From the sequence record NC_047754.1: DNA of 64,000 nt, one strand, 5' to 3'. The stretch's first letter is position 1; every line of letters begins with the position of its first letter. A program made the position numbers and the translations under genes. The notes below the pieces were generated by a model. The model was not told the DNA's origin. It was given only the letters and a program-made list of their open reading frames with translations, and did no database searches. Of this stretch, positions 2,294 through 21,110 are shown piece by piece. Source of the DNA: Escherichia phage phiAPCEc03.

Positions 2294-3060
2294 TGTCTCT
2301 TTCTGATTTAGCTACACAAATTATTAAGGAGCAACTAGATACTGTCGGACGTTCCGAGAACAATAAAAATACTGTTGTATACTCTGTTGAAACAGGATTA
2401 AAAGATCCTACTAGGGACGGTACTGTTGCTCAAGTATCTTTTAAGTTTTCAAAACCTGTATCACAAGATCTTCTTAATATTAGAACCGCTTCTATATTAA
2501 AAGCTGTATCCTCTAGTTTAGATCTTTCTGGAGATTTAGGTGCTCTAGAGAACTTAATACAAGCAACCGCTGGTAAAAAATCCTCAGTAGGTAAAAAACG
2601 TTCTACTGGTAGAGTGCAGGTAAATTTTGGGGATCCTAGAGACGTAGAAGATGGATATTCTGGTGCAGTAACAGGTGCTTCAGGACGTTTTGTATCAAAT
2701 AGCAATATGAAGGTTATTCTGGAGTTGGTTGCTAAAGAATACTTAATAAAGGATATGAAAAAAGCAGGAGCGCCATTAAAATTTAGAACTGGTCGCTTTG
2801 CAAACTCTTTAAAAATTAAAGATGTTATGCTTAGAGACGCAGAGACTAGTAAAGGTGCCCCAGAACTAAACGTAACATATAACTATATGACTCGTCCATA
2901 TTCTGTATTCAACCCCGCAGTATCTACATACAGAAGATTATCTCTACGACCTTATCCTGGCGCTAGAAACCCACAAAAACTTATTGGTGAGGCTATAGCA
3001 AAAGCTGCAAGAGACCTGATTCACTCCAGATATAAAATTAAGGTTAATCAAGGAACCTAA
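2293..3060 (+). CDS. Neck / head-completion protein (hypothetical)
   Basis: 255 aa ORF, start overlaps upstream stop (TAATG); function inferred from position only. Confidence 0.4.
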   Translation: MSLSDLATQIIKEQLDTVGRSENNKNTVVYSVETGLKDPTRDGTVAQVSFKFSKPVSQDLLNIRTASILKAVSSSLDLSGDLGALENLIQATAGKKSSVGKKRSTGRVQVNFGDPRDVEDGYSGAVTGASGRFVSNSNMKVILELVAKEYLIKDMKKAGAPLKFRTGRFANSLKIKDVMLRDAETSKGAPELNVTYNYMTRPYSVFNPAVSTYRRLSLRPYPGARNPQKLIGEAIAKAARDLIHSRYKIKVNQGT

Positions 3061-3063
3061 TAA

Positions 3064-3549
3064 ATGGACCATAGAACAAGTATTGCACAAGCTATGGTTG
3101 ACCGAATCTCTAAACAAATGGATGGTTCTCAACCTGACGAATATTTTAATAACCTATACGGAAACGTTTCTCGTCAAACTTATAAATTTGAGGAAATACG
3201 AGAGTTTCCTTATGTGGCAGTTCATATCGGAACTGAAACTGGGCAGTATCTTCCTTCGGGCCAACAGTGGATGTTTTTAGAACTTCCAATCCTGGTGTAC
3301 GATAAAGAGAAAACAGACATTCAAGAGCAACTTGAAAAACTCGTAGCGGATATAAAAACCGTTATTGACACAGGTGGAAATTTAGAATATACTGTTAGTA
3401 AACCTAATGGATCGACCTTCCCATGTGAGGCAACTGATATGATCATTACATCAGTTAGTACAGATGAGGGTCTACTGGCCCCATATGGTTTAGCAGAAAT
3501 AAATGTAACAGTGAGGTATCAGCCTCCACGTAGGTCACTTCGCAGATAA
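3064..3549 (+). CDS. Tail terminator / tail completion protein (T5 p142-like)
   Basis: 161 aa ORF immediately upstream of the tail tube gene; position and size agree with T5 p142 as recalled. Confidence 0.45.
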   Translation: MDHRTSIAQAMVDRISKQMDGSQPDEYFNNLYGNVSRQTYKFEEIREFPYVAVHIGTETGQYLPSGQQWMFLELPILVYDKEKTDIQEQLEKLVADIKTVIDTGGNLEYTVSKPNGSTFPCEATDMIITSVSTDEGLLAPYGLAEINVTVRYQPPRRSLRR

Positions 3550-3575
3550 GTTACAGATTAGGAGAAAATAATTAA

Positions 3576-4970
3576 ATGTCTTTACAACTATTACGTAATA
3601 CTCGAATCTTCGTGTCTACGGTTAAGACCGGTCACAATAAGACCAACACGCAAGAGATTCTAGTTCAGGATGATATTTCTTGGGGTCAGGACAGTAACTC
3701 AACAGATATTACTGTTAATGAAGCTGGTCCGCGTCCAACTCGTGGTTCTAAACGTTTTAATGACTCTTTAAACGCAGCTGAGTGGAGTTTCTCTACTTAT
3801 ATCCTGCCGTATAAAGATAAAAATACTAACAAACAAATTGTTCCTGACTATATGTTATGGCATGCACTTTCTAGTGGTAAAGCCCTTAACCTGGAAGGTG
3901 ATACAGGGGCACACAATAACGAAGCTAACTTTATGGTTAACTTCAAAGATAACTCCTATCATGAGTTAGCAATGTTACATATTTATATTCTGACTGATAA
4001 AGCATGGAGTTATATCGATTCCTGTCAGATTAATCAGGCAGAAGTTAACGTTGATATCGAAGATATTGGCCGTGTAACTTGGTCTGGTAATGGTAATCAG
4101 CTTATTCCTCTGGATAAGCAACCATTTGACCCAGATAAATTAGGTATTGATGATGAAACTTATATGACTATCCAGAGTTCTTATATTAAGAACAAACTTA
4201 CTATCCTGAAAATTAAGGATATGGATTCTGGTAAAGCATATGATATTCCTATTACTGGTGGTACTTTCACTATTAATAACAACATCACGTACCTAACCCC
4301 GAATATTATGTCCCGTGTAAATATTCCGATCGGTTCATTTACTGGTGCATTTGAACTAACTGGTTCATTAACTGCTTATCTGAATGATAAATTTCTTGGT
4401 TCTATGGAGCTGTACAAAGATCTTATCAAAACTCTGAAGGTAGTTAACCGCTTCGAAATTGCTCTAGTACTTGGTGGTGAATACAAGGAAGAACGTCCTG
4501 CGGCTATTCTGGTAGCTAAACAAGCACACGTTAATATTCCTACTATTGAAACTGATGATGTACTTGGTACTTCAGTAGAGTTTAAAGCTATTCCATCTGA
4601 TCTGGATGCTGGTGATGAAGGTTACTTAGGCTTCTCTAGTAAATATACCAAAACAACTATTAATAACTTGATTGTTAATGGTGATGGTGCTACTAATGCT
4701 GTAACCGCAATTACTGTTAAATCTGCTGGTGATGCTACTACAGTAAACAACTCGGCTACTCTTCAAATGAGTGTTGAAGTTACTCCTTCTCCCGCAAAGA
4801 ATAAGGAAGTTACTTGGGCTATCACTGCCGGTGATGCAGCTACTATCAGTGCAACCGGACTGTTGACAGCAGATGCTAGTAAAACTGGTGCAGTTACTGT
4901 GAAAGCTACTGCTAAAGATGGTTCTGGAGTTAAAGGTACTAAACAGATTACTGTAACAGCAGGTGGCTAA
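3576..4970 (+). CDS. Tail tube protein with C-terminal Ig-like domain (T5 pb6-like)
   Basis: 464 aa, matching pb6 size as recalled; C-terminus (VTAITVKSAGDATTVNNSATLQMSVEVTPSPA...VTVKATAKDGSG) is Ig/BIG2-like; SD AGGAGA upstream. Confidence 0.85.
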   Translation: MSLQLLRNTRIFVSTVKTGHNKTNTQEILVQDDISWGQDSNSTDITVNEAGPRPTRGSKRFNDSLNAAEWSFSTYILPYKDKNTNKQIVPDYMLWHALSSGKALNLEGDTGAHNNEANFMVNFKDNSYHELAMLHIYILTDKAWSYIDSCQINQAEVNVDIEDIGRVTWSGNGNQLIPLDKQPFDPDKLGIDDETYMTIQSSYIKNKLTILKIKDMDSGKAYDIPITGGTFTINNNITYLTPNIMSRVNIPIGSFTGAFELTGSLTAYLNDKFLGSMELYKDLIKTLKVVNRFEIALVLGGEYKEERPAAILVAKQAHVNIPTIETDDVLGTSVEFKAIPSDLDAGDEGYLGFSSKYTKTTINNLIVNGDGATNAVTAITVKSAGDATTVNNSATLQMSVEVTPSPAKNKEVTWAITAGDAATISATGLLTADASKTGAVTVKATAKDGSGVKGTKQITVTAGG

Positions 4971-16102: not shown

Positions 16103-16525
16103 ATGAGTACTGAAAATAGAGTTATAGACTTAGTAATAGATGAGAAAGTACCTTATGGTCTAATGATGCAATTCTTAGATGTTGATGATAGTACTTATCC
16201 CCCTACAAACACCCCTGTTAACTTAACAGGGTATTCTCTAAAGGGTACTATAAAGAATAGCCTTGATGAGAATGCGGAAACTTTGGCATCTTTTACTACT
16301 AAAATTATTGATGCTGCTCAAGGTGCTATAGCTATAAGTTTACCTGTAGAGGCGGTAGATAATATTGGTGAAAAAGCCACCAAAGAGAGAGATAAGTATA
16401 ACCCTCGCCAACGTTTTGCAGGATACTATGATATAATTATGACACGAGATGTCATAGGATCAGCTATTAGCTCTTTTCGTATAATGGAGGGTAAAGTATT
16501 TATCAGTGATGGGGTAACTAGATAA
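16103..16525 (+). CDS. Collar protein (T5 p132-like)
   Basis: 140 aa ORF between pb4-like gene and fibre gene; size and position match p132 as recalled. Confidence 0.55.
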
Positions 16526-18972
16526 TGGCAATAACTACTAAGATTATTGTACAACAAATATTAAATATTGATGATACTAAAGCTACTGCTAGTAAATTTC
16601 CTAGATACACAGTAACTCTTGGAAACTCTATTAGCTCTATTACTGCTATAGAGTTAGTATCCTCTATAGAGGCCGCTGCTAAATCTGCTGCGGCTGCAAA
16701 AGATTCTGAAATAGCTGCTAAAACCTCAGAACTTAATGCTAAGAACTCTGAACAGGAAGCTGCTATTTCTGCTGGAGCTTCAGAAGCTTCTGCTAATCAG
16801 TCTGCTACCTCTGCTACTCAGTCCGCAGCGTCAGCCAATAAGTCTGCAGAATCCGCTGCCGCAGCTAAAATATCCGAGACTAATGCGAAGACTAGTGAAA
16901 CTAATGCGAAGACTAGTGAAACTAACGCGAAGACTAGTGAAACTAATGCTGACGCATCAGCTGCTGCTGCAAAAATTAGTGAGACTAATGCAAAGGCAAG
17001 TGAGACTAATGCAGCTCAATCAGCTGCTGATGCAAAACTTAGCGAGGGTAACGCAAAGGTCAGTGAGACTAATGCAGCTCAATCAGCAGCTGATTCTAGC
17101 GGTTTTAGGAATGAGGCGGAAATATTTTCTGGGCAAGCTGCTGCATCGGCATCTGCGGCAAAAATCTCTGAAACCAATGCAAAAACCTCGGAAACAAAAG
17201 CTAAGGCTAGTGAAACTAATGCTGCGGGATCTGCAACTTCTGCTAGCCAATCTGTAGCTACTATTCAAGGACTTAAATCAGATGTCGAACAGTTAAAATC
17301 TGATACCCAGGACATTAAAAATAGTGCTATAACAGAGACAACAGCTTTAAAAGCGGATGTCGAACAGTTAAAATCTGATACCCAGGCCATTAAAAATAGC
17401 GCTATAACAGAGACAACAGCTTTAAAAGCGGATGTTGAGCAACTAAAAACAGATACACAAGGTATTAAGGATAGCGCGGTATCTGAGACAACAACTTTAA
17501 AAGATCAAGCTGCTGCTTCTGCTGCACAAGCAGGTAATAGTGCTGTTGAGGCCGGGCAACAAGCTAGCAATGCTGCTGGTAGTGCAAATAGCTCTAAAGT
17601 AGAAGCAGACCGTGCAAAGGCAGAAGCAGACCGTGCGGAAGTTGCAGCTAATAGGGATCCTGATCTTCAACCATTCCCTGACGTATGGATTCCATTTAAT
17701 GACTCGCTTGATATGCTCGCAGGTTATTCACCCGGCTATAAGAAAATAACAGTTGGTGAAGATGTTATTACAATGCCTTCTGATAAGGTTGTTAGTTTCA
17801 CGCGTGCGTCAAATGCAACATACATAAATAAGCATGGTGAATTTTGTATTGCTAATATCGATGAACCCAGATTTGAAAAGCAAGGACTCTTGATTGAAGG
17901 CCAGAGGACAAATCACATTACTTTCAGTAATGACCCCGCTTCACTAAATACAGATAAGCACCGTAGTGATGTTACTTATAATGTTGATAAGTATGGTTTT
18001 GCATATGCAACGGCTACAGCTAACGAAAATTCACATGGTGAGTACCCTTCATTATTTTATTGTAAAACCGTGAATGCAATCAACTGTCAGCAAAATGAAT
18101 ATGTTTCTTTATCTATACGAGTAAAGGCAAACTCGGATATCTATATCACCCCACAATTTTATTTAGTAGGTAAGGATGGAGGTCTTATTCTCGGTGCTAG
18201 ATCTTTCATAAGTTGCGAAACCGGCGAAGTTTCTTCTGTAGTAGAAGGGAGGGGGACTATAGCACATAGAATATATAGAGAAGACAACGGATGGTTGAAA
18301 GTTGAAGCTATGTGTAAATTTGTAGAACGTGGAGGTAGTTCTATTGGATCTGTAAATTATTGTCGGAATAATGATCAACCTTCGCAAGTTGGGGATACAA
18401 TATCATTTTGTACTCCGCAATTTGAAAAGGGTTTTTGTGCATCCTCCTTCATTATTACGGGAAGCACTCCTGCAACAAGGGCTCTGGATTATGTTACTAT
18501 ACCTGCAAGAAATAATTTCTCAGGGACGAATATTTCATTCCTTGCTGAGGTAAGTATCAACTGGAATAGCTTTCAATTAGATAATATATACCCAATGATA
18601 GTGGATAACAACCACTACTTCGTAAGAGGAAAAGCATTTGTTGCGGAATTTGACAGAACCTCCGTTACACCTTACACGTATGTGGTAACTGAGGATGGAT
18701 CAACTATTCTGTCCAGAGGTTATTCATTTGAAAAACAATTTTCTCCACATGTATTTGGTTTTATTCTCAGTGGCGATGTAGAGGTCACCTCGTTTGTTAA
18801 TGGTAATAGTGGTGAGACCTCACACGGTTCTACCTGGAAAGGAACGGACTCGGACGCACTAGTAGAAATAGGCGGTAGACTTTCAGATTCAACTAAATTG
18901 TATGGTCATATTCGTAACCTTAGAATATGGAATAGAGTATTAACAGATAGTCAAATGCGGGAGAAAGTTTAA
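16525..18972 (+). CDS. Tail fibre protein A (side fibre shaft; repeat-rich N-terminal half, jelly-roll-like C-terminal domain)
   Basis: 815 aa; heptad repeats SETNAKT x4 and 25-aa repeats DVEQLKSDTQxIKNSAITETTALKA x3; C-terminal ~350 aa Cys/Trp-containing domain ending ...LYGHIRNLRIWNRVLTDSQM (lectin/LamG-like by impression); start overlaps upstream stop. Confidence 0.7.
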   Translation: MAITTKIIVQQILNIDDTKATASKFPRYTVTLGNSISSITAIELVSSIEAAAKSAAAAKDSEIAAKTSELNAKNSEQEAAISAGASEASANQSATSATQSAASANKSAESAAAAKISETNAKTSETNAKTSETNAKTSETNADASAAAAKISETNAKASETNAAQSAADAKLSEGNAKVSETNAAQSAADSSGFRNEAEIFSGQAAASASAAKISETNAKTSETKAKASETNAAGSATSASQSVATIQGLKSDVEQLKSDTQDIKNSAITETTALKADVEQLKSDTQAIKNSAITETTALKADVEQLKTDTQGIKDSAVSETTTLKDQAAASAAQAGNSAVEAGQQASNAAGSANSSKVEADRAKAEADRAEVAANRDPDLQPFPDVWIPFNDSLDMLAGYSPGYKKITVGEDVITMPSDKVVSFTRASNATYINKHGEFCIANIDEPRFEKQGLLIEGQRTNHITFSNDPASLNTDKHRSDVTYNVDKYGFAYATATANENSHGEYPSLFYCKTVNAINCQQNEYVSLSIRVKANSDIYITPQFYLVGKDGGLILGARSFISCETGEVSSVVEGRGTIAHRIYREDNGWLKVEAMCKFVERGGSSIGSVNYCRNNDQPSQVGDTISFCTPQFEKGFCASSFIITGSTPATRALDYVTIPARNNFSGTNISFLAEVSINWNSFQLDNIYPMIVDNNHYFVRGKAFVAEFDRTSVTPYTYVVTEDGSTILSRGYSFEKQFSPHVFGFILSGDVEVTSFVNGNSGETSHGSTWKGTDSDALVEIGGRLSDSTKLYGHIRNLRIWNRVLTDSQMREKV
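16873..16950 (+). repeat. 21-nt tandem repeat (about 3.7 units) inside fibre gene
   Basis: Unit ACTAGTGAAACTAATGCGAAG repeated head-to-tail, encoding SETNAKT. Confidence 0.85.
17281..17505 (+). repeat. 75-nt tandem repeat x3 inside fibre gene
   Basis: Units at 17281-17355 and 17356-17430 differ at 2 positions; third unit (17431-17505) is diverged. Confidence 0.85.
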
Positions 18973-19236
18973 GTGAAAGATATTAATTTACAATTCAAGG
19001 ATGAAAAACATTATCTGGATGTTGTCGTTGATAGTGGGTGGCTTAAGACAAACTACGGTAACGTGTTTATAGATGAAATTGGTTTTATCCCTGTGGTAGA
19101 CGACCCTAAAAGTAAAACCCCTGCTATTATTGGTAAAGAAGGTTATTACATAAATATAAGGGTAGGAGATAATATAGACTTGTCAGACATCGAACAATTC
19201 ATTATTAAGAATCCCGATGTACGCAAATGGGCATAA
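18973..19236 (+). CDS. Hypothetical small protein between fibre genes (GTG start)
   Basis: 87 aa ORF filling the gap between the two fibre genes exactly; GTG start directly after upstream stop. Confidence 0.35.
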   Translation: MKDINLQFKDEKHYLDVVVDSGWLKTNYGNVFIDEIGFIPVVDDPKSKTPAIIGKEGYYINIRVGDNIDLSDIEQFIIKNPDVRKWA

Positions 19237-19246
19237 GAGGTGATCA

Positions 19247-20989
19247 ATGACTACTTATACTAATATCCCCCAGGATATTACAAAACTTAAAGACGAAAAG
19301 ATGGATAAAAACAACAATTTATCCGATCTTGCAGACCGTGCAGCAGCATGGTTAAATGTGCGTCCTATTGGGTCCACCCCTCTTGCGGGGGATCCTGTTG
19401 GGGACTATGATGCCGCAACTAAACGTTGGGTAGAGAATAAGATTAACACCGGTACAGTCGGTCCCACTATGAATGGTGTTATGAATTACGGTGTTGGTGA
19501 TTTCCACCTTCGAGATAGTCGTGCGTATATCCAGCCGTACGAGGTGGTTTCTGATGGTCAGCTTCTTAACAGGGCTGACTGGCCGGAGCTTTGGGCATAC
19601 GCTCAAAGGGTTGGTGTTATAGAGGATTCGGTATGGTTAGCTTATAAATTCCAGCGTGGAAAATACTCTAATGGTGACGGAGCAACAACTTTTCGTGTTC
19701 CAGATAAGAATGGGGTGCAGGAGGGATCAATACGTGCTCTTTATGGCCGTGGAGATGGCGGGAATAGTGGTGCAAATGGGCAACTGTTCGAATCCGCTGC
19801 GCCTAATATTACAGGCTTTTTCACCACATATTCCGCTCAAACTTACGGCCAGGTATTAGGTATGACAGGTGGTTCTTTTACCACAAGTAATAAAATATTT
19901 CCGGAAGGAAAAGGAGACGGTATACCCCCAGGCACAGCGCCGCTCGCTGGGCGTTATAATACCTGCGACTTCAATGCCTCAATGTCAAGTCCGATTTACG
20001 GGGCATCAACTGATGAGATTCTTACACGAAACTTTGTCGGCGTGTGGGTAATACGGGCGTCCGGTGGTTTCGTTGCGGCAAATACATCATGGAGTGTAAT
20101 AAACGCTGATGCTGCCAAACCTCCTACTGGTACAGTTGTAAGGGGTGGTAGTGTGAAGTCAGAATACAAGATTGGCACAACTACTACGCATCAAGCATAT
20201 CTGCAATCTTACGGAAAGATTGATGGATTGACGTCTGAACAAGGTGCAGTTATATCAAACGGGGTTCAAGAGTGGTCATTTAATCAAGCTGGGACTTTGT
20301 ACTTCCCAAGCGCAGAAACTCAAATTGGCACGCTAAGGTCTGATGGCGCGCTACAGGTTAACGCATACGTACGAGCAAAAGACTTCGTTGCACAGCCATT
20401 AAACTCTGTTGGAGTTGCCGCTATAGAAAGAAACGCCATCAGAATGATTAACTACGCGAATGTGTCAGAAGGGTATTATGTAAACACTATAAGCGGCGAT
20501 TGGTACGATGGAAGCTGGATATTTGGTGGTATTCGCTCCGGTAATAGGTTGTTAGATAGGGTACAGCTTAATGTCTATAACGGAATCGGAGGAGCTGCAT
20601 CTTATATTTTTGGGACGGATGGTATAGCAAAAGGTCAAGAATGGAGAAACTTATCCGACAAACGCATTAAAAGTAATATTGAGCGTATAAACGATCCACT
20701 ATCTAAGATGCGAAACATTAAAGGGGTTAAATGGGTACTAGAAACAAACGGCTCAGTTGGGTATGGATTTATTGCTCAGGATGTAGAGAAAGACTTTCCT
20801 GAAGCAGTATCTGAAACTCAGTCATCACCTGTTACTCTGCGCGACGGTTCGACGTTGGATAACATAAAATCTGTTAATATGCCAGGTGTAGCAGCTGCAC
20901 TGCACCACGAGGCGATACTTGCTTTGATGGAAAAGGTGGAGAACCTAGAAGCAGAATTAGCTGCATTAAAAGAAGCGAATGGTTCCTAA
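19247..20989 (+). CDS. Tail fibre protein B with C-terminal intramolecular chaperone (peptidase S74-like) domain
   Basis: 580 aa; C-terminus NLSDKRIKSNIERINDPLSKMRNIKGVKWVLETNGSVGYGFIAQDVEKDFPEAV...LEAELAALKEA is typical of self-cleaving fibre chaperone domains; SD GAGGTGA. Confidence 0.75.
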   Translation: MTTYTNIPQDITKLKDEKMDKNNNLSDLADRAAAWLNVRPIGSTPLAGDPVGDYDAATKRWVENKINTGTVGPTMNGVMNYGVGDFHLRDSRAYIQPYEVVSDGQLLNRADWPELWAYAQRVGVIEDSVWLAYKFQRGKYSNGDGATTFRVPDKNGVQEGSIRALYGRGDGGNSGANGQLFESAAPNITGFFTTYSAQTYGQVLGMTGGSFTTSNKIFPEGKGDGIPPGTAPLAGRYNTCDFNASMSSPIYGASTDEILTRNFVGVWVIRASGGFVAANTSWSVINADAAKPPTGTVVRGGSVKSEYKIGTTTTHQAYLQSYGKIDGLTSEQGAVISNGVQEWSFNQAGTLYFPSAETQIGTLRSDGALQVNAYVRAKDFVAQPLNSVGVAAIERNAIRMINYANVSEGYYVNTISGDWYDGSWIFGGIRSGNRLLDRVQLNVYNGIGGAASYIFGTDGIAKGQEWRNLSDKRIKSNIERINDPLSKMRNIKGVKWVLETNGSVGYGFIAQDVEKDFPEAVSETQSSPVTLRDGSTLDNIKSVNMPGVAAALHHEAILALMEKVENLEAELAALKEANGS

Positions 20990-21070: not shown

Positions 21071-21110
21071 AAAAAGAAACCCCAGTGGACAAAATCCGCT
21101 GGGGTTTTTA
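21071..21110. terminator. Bidirectional terminator between convergent late (+) and early (-) modules
   Basis: Hairpin CCCCAG-N13-CTGGGG flanked by an A-run (21071-21079) and a T-run (21105-21109). Confidence 0.75.

Follow-up and report, generated by a model that had tools for sequence, protein, structure and literature searches.

Which O-antigen types can be crossed by a T5-like phage is determined by its side fibres, and several described systems stand close to the side tail-fibre locus reported here, which lies at 16525-20989 of a 64,000-nucleotide (nt) stretch of Escherichia phage phiAPCEc03 (sequence record NC_047754.1; the whole stretch is called the window, and its positions are used throughout). 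The ltf gene of T5 encodes a single polypeptide, pb1, of 1396 amino acids (aa). In DT57C, nine LtfA chains insert their N-terminal strands into a dodecameric ring of LtfC, and the trimeric helix of LtfA begins at residue 40 (PMC10713586). The same cryo-electron microscopy (cryo-EM) structure gave LtfC its role as the collar, a ring on the tail tip in which the side fibres are held by their N-termini (PMC10713586). AKFV33, described in 2012, has no T5-type Ltf; its fibre is made of two proteins, ORF137 (ltpA) and ORF135 (ltpB), and mass spectrometry of virions revealed ORF137, the homologue of the proximal protein in the window (PMC3326045). AKFV33 was then placed among the double-ltf phages by Golomidova et al. 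2016 (PMC4728585). For IrisVonRoten (Bas32), Humolli et al. 2025 modelled Gp24 by AlphaFold-Multimer as a T-shaped fibre with a Gp12-like receptor-binding domain (RBD1), a T5-like RBD2 and an intramolecular chaperone, seated on the proximal fibre Gp22, and suggested that the protruding C-terminal galectin-like domain of Gp22 may be an additional receptor-binding domain (PMC11990801). We found no discussion of the 92-aa gene of IrisVonRoten in the main text of that paper (PMC11990801).

The window is a segment of a Tequintavirus (T5-like) genome; its first 25 kb are 94% identical to phage FFH1 over 99% of the length and also match hundreds of T5-like phages. The module at 16525-20989 is the lateral (side) tail-fibre locus of an AKFV33/FFH1/IrisVonRoten-type Tequintavirus. 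The genes for pb3, pb4 and the LtfC collar are located upstream, and the gene order is LtfC-p815-p87-p580-terminator, with three open reading frames (ORFs), p815, p87 and p580, all in one direction. The proximal side-fibre protein, p815 (16525-18972, plus strand, as are all features located below; ATG start; 815 aa, 86.5 kDa), has the C-terminus ...GHIRNLRIWNRVLTDSQMREKV. It is followed by p87 (18973-19236; GTG start), a small acidic protein of 87 aa and 10 kDa, and by p580 (19247-20989; ATG start), a distal side-fibre protein of 580 aa with a C-terminal intramolecular chaperone. The GTG of p87 stands in frame with p815 and right after its stop codon (TAA GTG; 18970-18975). A Shine-Dalgarno-like GGGAGA was found 8 nt upstream of the p87 start, and GAGGTG upstream of that of p580. 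An earlier reading of the window from its letters only, hereafter the sequence-only reading, had set a single T5 fibre of about 1400 aa against three ORFs here: an 815-aa protein with a pb1-like N-terminus, tandem repeats and a Cys/Trp-containing, jelly-roll-like tip, an 87-aa ORF with a GTG start, and a 580-aa protein ending in an S74-type chaperone. The length given for T5 agrees with its record, the coordinates of the three ORFs are exactly those claimed, and each of the domain features was recovered by the searches described below.

Taken together, we regard it as probable that p815 is anchored in LtfC, that the lectin-like module at its end is served by p87, and that p580 is docked onto this end, giving a composite fibre with multiple glycan-binding sites. 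The fibre architecture itself is already known, having been annotated since 2012-2014 and modelled in 2025 (PMC3326045, PMC4728585, PMC11990801), and the fibre of the window is a mosaic member of it and largely ordinary. The branched or two-receptor fibre, with a host range different from that of T5, to which the sequence-only reading had pointed is thus plausible by inference, and the multi-receptor idea is already published.

The whole of p815 was assigned to PHROG 1419, 'tail protein' (E 8e-227). Its residues 1-227 (16525-17205) constitute a pb1/LtfA-type anchor with the start of a trimeric alpha-helical shaft: they are 52% identical to residues 1-205 of T5 pb1 (E 7e-32), residues 1-191 are 54% identical to DT57C LtfA 1-205, and the N-terminal part matches the LtfA chain of the DT57C cryo-EM entry (PDB 8hqz_d, E 8e-34). 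The gene directly 5' of p815 (16103-16525) encodes a 140-aa LtfC collar protein (Pfam LtfC, E 3.7e-15), which is annotated in FFH1, Bas32 and Bas34 as a collar or lateral tail fibre assembly protein. As judged by homology, p815 is anchored in the LtfC collar by this N-terminus, and its N-terminal part corresponds to the region that forms the trimeric helical shaft in LtfA. With a pb1/LtfA-like N-terminus of about 200 residues and an LtfC gene directly upstream, p815 agrees with the T5-type LtfC-anchored family; it departs from that family in that the S74 domain is carried not by the anchor polypeptide, which ends in a LamG domain, but by p580.

The shaft is rich in Ala, Ser and Thr (26%, 15% and 10% of aa 40-380) and carries tandem repeats at 16879-17503, comprising the heptad ETNAKTS, a 21-aa unit and three 25-aa units. 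Tandem Repeats Finder detected units of 21 nt (3.4 copies; 16879-16949), 63 nt (2.9 copies; 16914-17094) and 75 nt (3.0 copies; 17281-17503), and at the protein level ETNA heptads occupy aa 118-230 and three 25-aa DVEQLKxDTQ units aa 253-327. In the record of SP15 (NC_048627; L012:1958-4499), the p815 homologue is annotated as two overlapping coding sequences, 1958-2569 and 2544-4499, probably reflecting a frameshift or an assembly problem in the repeat-rich shaft of that record.

The C-terminal part of p815 holds all 8 of its Cys residues (within 441-638) and all 5 of its Trp residues (within 388-802). The last 440 residues belong to a family of more than 200 proteins (E <= 0.001); in E. coli prophages, in Seuratvirus and Dhillonvirus and in phages related to these, its members form the C-terminal ends of lateral or side tail fibres. 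When 106 distant homologues were compared, the best-conserved stretch was the junction at aa 385-465 (17677-17919; ...PDVWIPFNDSLDM...EPRFEKQGLLIEGQRTN), with a mean identity to the window of 0.44-0.90 per 10-residue block. Residues 625-665 and 795-815 were also conserved, residues 465-625 fell into two deep classes, and the most variable segment was 695-775, within the LamG domain. An AlphaFold2 (AF2) model of the p815 C-terminus, built on 112 sequences, gave a confident beta-sandwich at about 464-640, with a predicted local distance difference test score (pLDDT) of about 85-94, and a moderately confident jelly-roll at 645-815. The first of these domains (aa ~465-640; 17917-18444) is a homologue of the RcGTA head spike fibre. 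NCBIfam NF048003, GTA_spike_fiber, matches aa 456-653 (50.4 bits, cut-off 36), and the p815 family profile (~426-668) matches the RcGTA head spike fibre Rcc01080 (PDB 6tb9_F3, E 7e-14). Binding of Rcc01080 to capsular polysaccharide was shown with the tagged recombinant protein (PMC10218006; PMC7296036). The second domain (aa 655-815; 18487-18969) is a C-terminal LamG or ConA-like jelly-roll, in which Pfam detected Laminin_G_3 at 655-810 and the fold of which is of the LamG, pentraxin or CBM40 type. The end of p815 therefore shows the head-spike-fibre-like sandwich and the LamG/galectin-like domain expected of the proximal fibre in a tripartite module.

The small protein p87 belongs to PHROG 1361, 'unknown function' (E 2e-26), and its gene directly follows the proximal fibre gene, as is the case for fibres of the AKFV33 and IrisVonRoten type. 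A profile search gave 147 homologues; their lengths span about 87-150 aa, with nearly all at 87-96 aa. They originate without exception from enterobacterial phages or prophages, and the named ones are all termed hypothetical. M1, D3, G37, R63 and W86 are invariant in the family, the C-terminal end is RxWA, and AF2 predicted a small alpha/beta fold at a pLDDT of 91.5. No similarity in sequence or fold was detected to Tfa of lambda or Mu, or to T4 gp38 and gp57A. Its structural neighbours were not informative, and the PDB sequence search yielded nothing significant, only four unrelated chains at E 0.27-3.2. A HMMER scan of 1.84 billion representatives gave only 5 hits; two of these, P0132 and P0133, were rejected as spurious, being repetitive, eukaryote-like proteins of ~1000 aa without a relevant Pfam domain that scored via six weak repeats each and look like chance matches summed over the repeats.

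The neighbourhood of p87 homologues was then compared among 71 p87-containing loci. In every locus with a readable upstream flank, the upstream neighbour is a LamG-ended fibre gene, which encodes 537-816 aa and carries the family motif GLL[IV]E. In 44 loci, all of lambdoid prophages, the next gene encodes a membrane protein of 97 or 146 aa and no further fibre gene is present, which indicates that a LamG-ended fibre and a p87 homologue form by themselves a self-sufficient unit, as far as can be judged from gene content. In 21 other loci the next gene encodes a fibre of 330-586 aa that opens with the motif M-x-T-x-T-x-IP-x-DI-x-x-LK; in a 22nd, VogelGryff, the motif is offset by an annotated N-terminal extension. 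The p87 homologue and the lectin module diverge together into two deep classes of about 30% identity, and across both classes the first 60 residues of p580 remain 87-100% identical.

The distal protein, p580, was assigned to PHROG 6921, 'tail fiber protein' (E 5e-259). Over its whole length it is 43% identical to DT57C LtfA 508-1066; it is also 56% identical to DT57C LtfB 206-533, and its residues 1-332 are 66% identical to residues 1-325 of IrisVonRoten Gp24. No similarity between p580 and T5 pb1 was detected by BLASTP apart from the cleavage motif described below, and p580 has no virion-anchor homology and matches no T5 tail-attachment region. Its N-terminal motif (19247-19297; MTTYTNIPQDITKLKDE), the proposed docking peptide, is shared by distal genes in T5-like, Seuratvirus/Nonagvirus-sized and lambdoid genomes, in which the remainder of the protein differs. 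The distal fibre is thus an add-on with a conserved N-terminal peptide, so far as sequence comparison can tell, and seems to attach through this short peptide.

The motif was followed by a conserved N-terminal half (aa ~22-290; 19310-20116), in which p580 is 82-98% identical to the other T5-like and Seuratvirus homologues over aa 60-190 and 59-95% identical over aa 190-300. A weak signal of the Pfam phage tail Collar family (gp12-like) was observed in 9 of 10 p580 homologues, at E 0.002 at best. The matching region of IrisVonRoten Gp24 has been named Gp12-like RBD1 (PMC11990801), and the Collar signal fits this name. Compared with the T-shape of Gp24, residues 1-332 of p580 cover the RBD1 part, with Collar weak, and the distal part is unrelated in sequence. 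The distal region of the mature protein (aa ~300-469; 20144-20653) is variable among relatives and likely represents the receptor-binding tip.

The C-terminal end of p580 (aa 470-580; 20654-20986) is a Peptidase_S74 intramolecular chaperone. Residues 470-521 match Pfam PF13884 (45.6 bits, cut-off 22), S74 was also detected in all 10 homologues, and the profile matches the MYRF ICA domain 7dc3 (E 5e-12) and the S16 fibre 6f45. The Ser-Lys dyad of S74 chaperones is catalytic, as established from endosialidase and pb1 studies. The domain of p580 starts with S470-DKRI-K475, an S-D-x-x-x-K motif, and NLSDKRIKSN aligns with NTSDARLKND of T5 pb1 (1262-1271); among the 10 homologues K475 is invariant and S470 nearly so. 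Autocleavage at S470 is thus predicted, and would leave a mature fibre of aa 1-469 and 50.5 kDa. Two further records concern distal fibre genes of this kind. The VogelGryff product bas25_0024 (L006:5267-6433; 388 aa), annotated as 'putative lateral tail fiber chaperone', carries the N-terminal motif, an S74-like C-terminal region and the segment NLSDLADR...WLNVRPIG as in p580 (73% identity over 67 residues), and on this basis resembles a short distal fibre more than a chaperone. In L019, an IMG/VR copy of Salmonella phage VSe12, the distal fibre ORF of 277 aa starts in the conserved region (MCVLLGPPPLAGDPVGDYDAATKRW...) without the N-terminal motif; the gene may be disrupted, or its start wrongly placed.

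All three genes are also annotated in FFH1, AKFV33, SP15, ESCO40, SelmaRatti (Bas34), IrisVonRoten and EC100, and the Seuratvirus phages SA126VB, phiG7 and BRET carry them from about p815 residue 300 onward. Compared with FFH1, the module is 96% identical in DNA over 94%, and the p815 homologue, FFH1 gp080, is 96% identical in DNA. Protein identities to FFH1 are 93-100% except in the LamG domain. A hypervariable patch was located in this domain at 18600-18890: DNA identity to FFH1 is 48-59% there, with one window of 82% at the 5' edge of the patch, and at least 88%, mostly at least 94%, in the rest of the module, while identity to SelmaRatti is 93-97% within the patch. Correspondingly, protein identity at aa 655-815 of p815 is 63% for FFH1 and 95% for SelmaRatti; AKFV33 and SP15 also have a LamG domain similar to that of the window. 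In p580, identity to AKFV33, SelmaRatti and SP15 drops to a roughly random level past about 19800-20150, and identity to FFH1 stays at 96-100%. From these comparisons, the module is considered to contain two variable cassettes that are exchanged independently of each other, one being the LamG patch and the other the distal half of p580, and host range appears to be reshuffled at these two sites.

The most likely mechanism for the LtfC-anchored composite fibre is as follows. By homology, LtfC holds nine p815 N-termini, giving three trimeric shafts. Each shaft would end in the conserved junction at aa 385-465, from which three two-domain lectin-like modules, one per p815 chain, would protrude. 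The small protein p87 would be made in step with p815 and serve the lectin module, either as an assembly factor or as a small structural subunit. The p580 trimer would fold with help of the S74 chaperone and then be cleaved at S470, and p580 trimers would dock via the N-terminal T-x-T-x-IP-x-DI-x-x-LK peptide onto the p815/p87 end and present the main O-antigen-binding variable tip. The composite fibre so formed would bind glycans at more than one site, and its specificity would be reshuffled via the LamG patch and the p580 distal half. We interpret p580 as an attached distal fibre because of its lack of virion-anchor homology, its travel together with the C-terminal half of p815 and p87 as a unit into Seuratvirus genomes, whose tails are unrelated to that of T5, its shared N-terminal motif and its swapped distal half. 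The sandwich and LamG module of p815 is inferred to act as an auxiliary glycan-binding domain, as suggested by the hypervariable patch and the capsule-binding homologue.

Several observations weigh against this interpretation. The Pfam match of the LamG domain barely clears its threshold (28.5 bits, cut-off 27.6). No relation of p87 to known fibre chaperones or adaptors was detected by domain, profile, PDB-sequence or structure-neighbour searches. FFH1, AKFV33 and SP15, which all infect O157, share no obvious high-identity cassette in either variable region. In addition, the AF2 monomer is weak at p815 375-460 (17647-17904), with pLDDT below 50 at 375-404 and 421-459 and block means of 28-59; as this region is conserved and yet of low confidence, the model points to a fold that requires trimerisation or a binding partner, which could be p87 or the N-terminus of p580. 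An unlikely alternative is a linear jointed fibre, in which the C-terminal module of p815, together with p87, is only a joint or docking platform that binds no receptor, comparable to the knee of the T4 long tail fibre or to the fibre-anchoring wedge subunit of myophage baseplates, and p580 alone sets the specificity. A weak Pfam match to T4 gp6 domain II (E 0.016) agrees with such a joint, as does the fact that the junction and the motif at the N-terminus of p580 are conserved in both deep classes of the module. Against it stand the 44 loci that have a LamG-ended fibre and a p87 homologue without any distal fibre gene, and the sequence-level homologue of the module, Rcc01080, is an experimentally shown polysaccharide binder. 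The LamG domain is, moreover, the most variable part and is exchanged as a bounded patch, which is unexpected for a joint in contact with a 100%-conserved p580 N-terminus. The lack of a third fibre gene in those loci, the variability of LamG and the bounded exchange lead us to consider the lectin module as probably functional in itself; that a pure joint on so conserved a partner is not expected to hold a swapped hypervariable patch is the main argument for a module that lies exposed, is under selection and hence probably binds a receptor.

Attachment of p580 to p815 is itself denied by the alternative of two independent fibres, in which p580 is attached separately at the tail tip and p87 is an adaptor or chaperone specific to p580 and unrelated to p815. 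This analysis gave no direct evidence for contact between p815 and p580, and in DT57C weak densities were read as LtfB in contact with the tail tip (PMC10713586). We nevertheless consider separate attachment improbable: the block of p815 C-terminal half, p87 and p580 moves together into Seuratvirus, p580 shows no homology to T5 tail-attachment regions, some loci with a p87 homologue have no p580-like gene, and the published AlphaFold-Multimer model puts the homologous Gp24 on Gp22 (PMC11990801). The sequence-only reading had named, as one case that would overturn it, a single gene split by a sequencing frameshift. The in-frame position of p87 right after the p815 stop, the homology of p580 to the distal half of the single polypeptide LtfA of DT57C, and the migration of AKFV33 ORF137 at 95.8 kDa, against 83.1 kDa calculated, could each be taken as signs that frameshifts or a false stop had broken up a single pb1-like gene. 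Such an artefact is nonetheless hardly credible. The same three ORFs are present in independently sequenced phages of three groups (T5-like, Seuratvirus and lambdoid), and the frame of the small gene relative to the upstream fibre gene varies among genomes, being in frame, +1 or with a 4-nt overlap, so that these are not pieces of a broken single gene. Each ORF has its own Shine-Dalgarno-like site, p87 has a confidently predicted fold and belongs to a family of 147 conserved proteins in which several residues are invariant, and p815 ends in a complete LamG domain, as do the more than 200 proteins of its family, which also end there. Programmed read-through of the p815 stop into p87 was likewise rejected as a general mechanism, the in-frame arrangement not being conserved in other lineages. 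AKFV33 has the same in-frame arrangement, and its ORF137, about 13 kDa above the calculated mass, would be 93.3 kDa together with the small protein; the gel mass could be due to read-through or just to anomalous migration.

Within the composite fibre, a more far-reaching proposal may be put forward tentatively, and we hold it to be less likely true than false: that the p87 family and the junction of the LamG-ended fibre form a universal socket, for which the T-x-T-x-IP-x-DI-x-x-LK peptide is the plug. If this is the case, T5-like, Seuratvirus/Nonagvirus and lambdoid phages would bolt interchangeable distal fibres onto a lectin-like proximal fibre, and this would represent a previously unrecognised plug-and-play system of multi-receptor side fibres across unrelated siphovirus tails. 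Three points may be modestly new: the universal pairing of PHROG 1361 proteins with LamG-ended fibres in the 71 p87-containing loci surveyed, the conserved N-terminal motif of the distal fibres, and exactly where the two swapped cassettes of phiAPCEc03 begin and end. AKFV33, FFH1 and SP15, which carry the same type of module, are candidates for control of E. coli O157:H7, and the two cassettes (the LamG patch of ~300 nt and the p580 distal half), together with the short attachment peptide, offer handles for host-range engineering.

Downstream of p580, a strong intrinsic terminator (21075-21109; a 15-bp stem with 7 G-C pairs, then a T run) ends the late structural operon and separates it from the convergent minus-strand genes, including those for dUTPase and flap endonuclease, as in T5. 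A bidirectional terminator is annotated at the equivalent position in the records of T5 and AKFV33. The hydrophobic protein encoded after p87 homologues in lambdoid loci, of 97 aa or sometimes 146 aa, starts with MDISPLLHALCAVAAQ and was found in Perceval (L007:5292-5585) and about 44 IMG/VR prophage loci, for instance L022 and L034. Its gene, at the position of the distal fibre gene, may be a lysogenic-conversion or exclusion gene.

Comparison with the known systems places the locus as follows. The likeness to T5 pb1 (Ltf) consists of the N-terminal 205 residues, the collar attachment and, at the end of the receptor-binding polypeptide, an S74 domain that contains the SDxxxK motif; T5 makes a single polypeptide, in which nothing beyond the N-terminus and the cleavage motif is detectably similar to p815 or p580. 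DT57C and DT571/2 (Golomidova et al. 2016; Ayala et al. 2023) share with the window the LtfC collar, the pb1-type N-terminus and two large fibre genes. The O-antigen-binding fibres of DT57C, however, carry S74 on both LtfA and LtfB, whereas here it is present on p580 and absent from p815, and DT57C has neither the small gene nor the LamG module. Docking in DT57C involves a phiEco32 gp14-like region of LtfA (223-471, 44% to gp14) and a gp15-like N-terminus of LtfB. BLASTP detected no similarity of p815 to phiEco32 gp14, and the gp15-like N-terminal 45 residues are not on p580, which aligns only from LtfB 206 or gp15 205 and has the T-x-T-x-IP-x-DI motif instead. A fibre of the DT57C LtfA/LtfB type was therefore rejected, the gp14-like region, the gp15-like N-terminus and the proximal S74 all being absent; of the LtfA/LtfB alignment that the sequence-only reading had proposed, the homology of p580 to LtfA 508-1066 and LtfB 206-533 stands and the docking elements do not. 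Given the homology of p580 to the distal half of LtfA, the module looks like a 'split' LtfA into which a lectin module and a small gene have been inserted.

With Rcc01080 of RcGTA and other ConA-like/LamG modules p815 shares the two-domain beta-rich lectin-like architecture, but Rcc01080 sits on a capsid pentamer as a single chain, while in p815 the module terminates a trimeric tail fibre and occurs together with p87. The Stf fibres of lambdoid prophages share this C-terminal module (30-44% identity), and a p87 homologue comes next; their N-terminus is of the PF08400 type, which fits a lambda-type tail, and most of these loci have the 97-aa membrane-protein gene instead of a distal fibre gene. 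IrisVonRoten has the same gene order, Gp22/Gp23/Gp24, with Gp22 56% identical to p815 over the full length. It belongs to the other deep class, with about 28-35% identity in the lectin module and 34% in the small protein, and its Gp24 is unrelated to p580 past aa ~330. The closest systems are the O157:H7-type Tequintavirus phages FFH1, AKFV33, SP15 and ESCO40, in which the same three genes are present in the same place. FFH1 differs from the window in the LamG patch, and AKFV33, SP15 and SelmaRatti differ in the distal half of p580, so that at the sequence level the fibre of phiAPCEc03 is a new combination of known cassettes.

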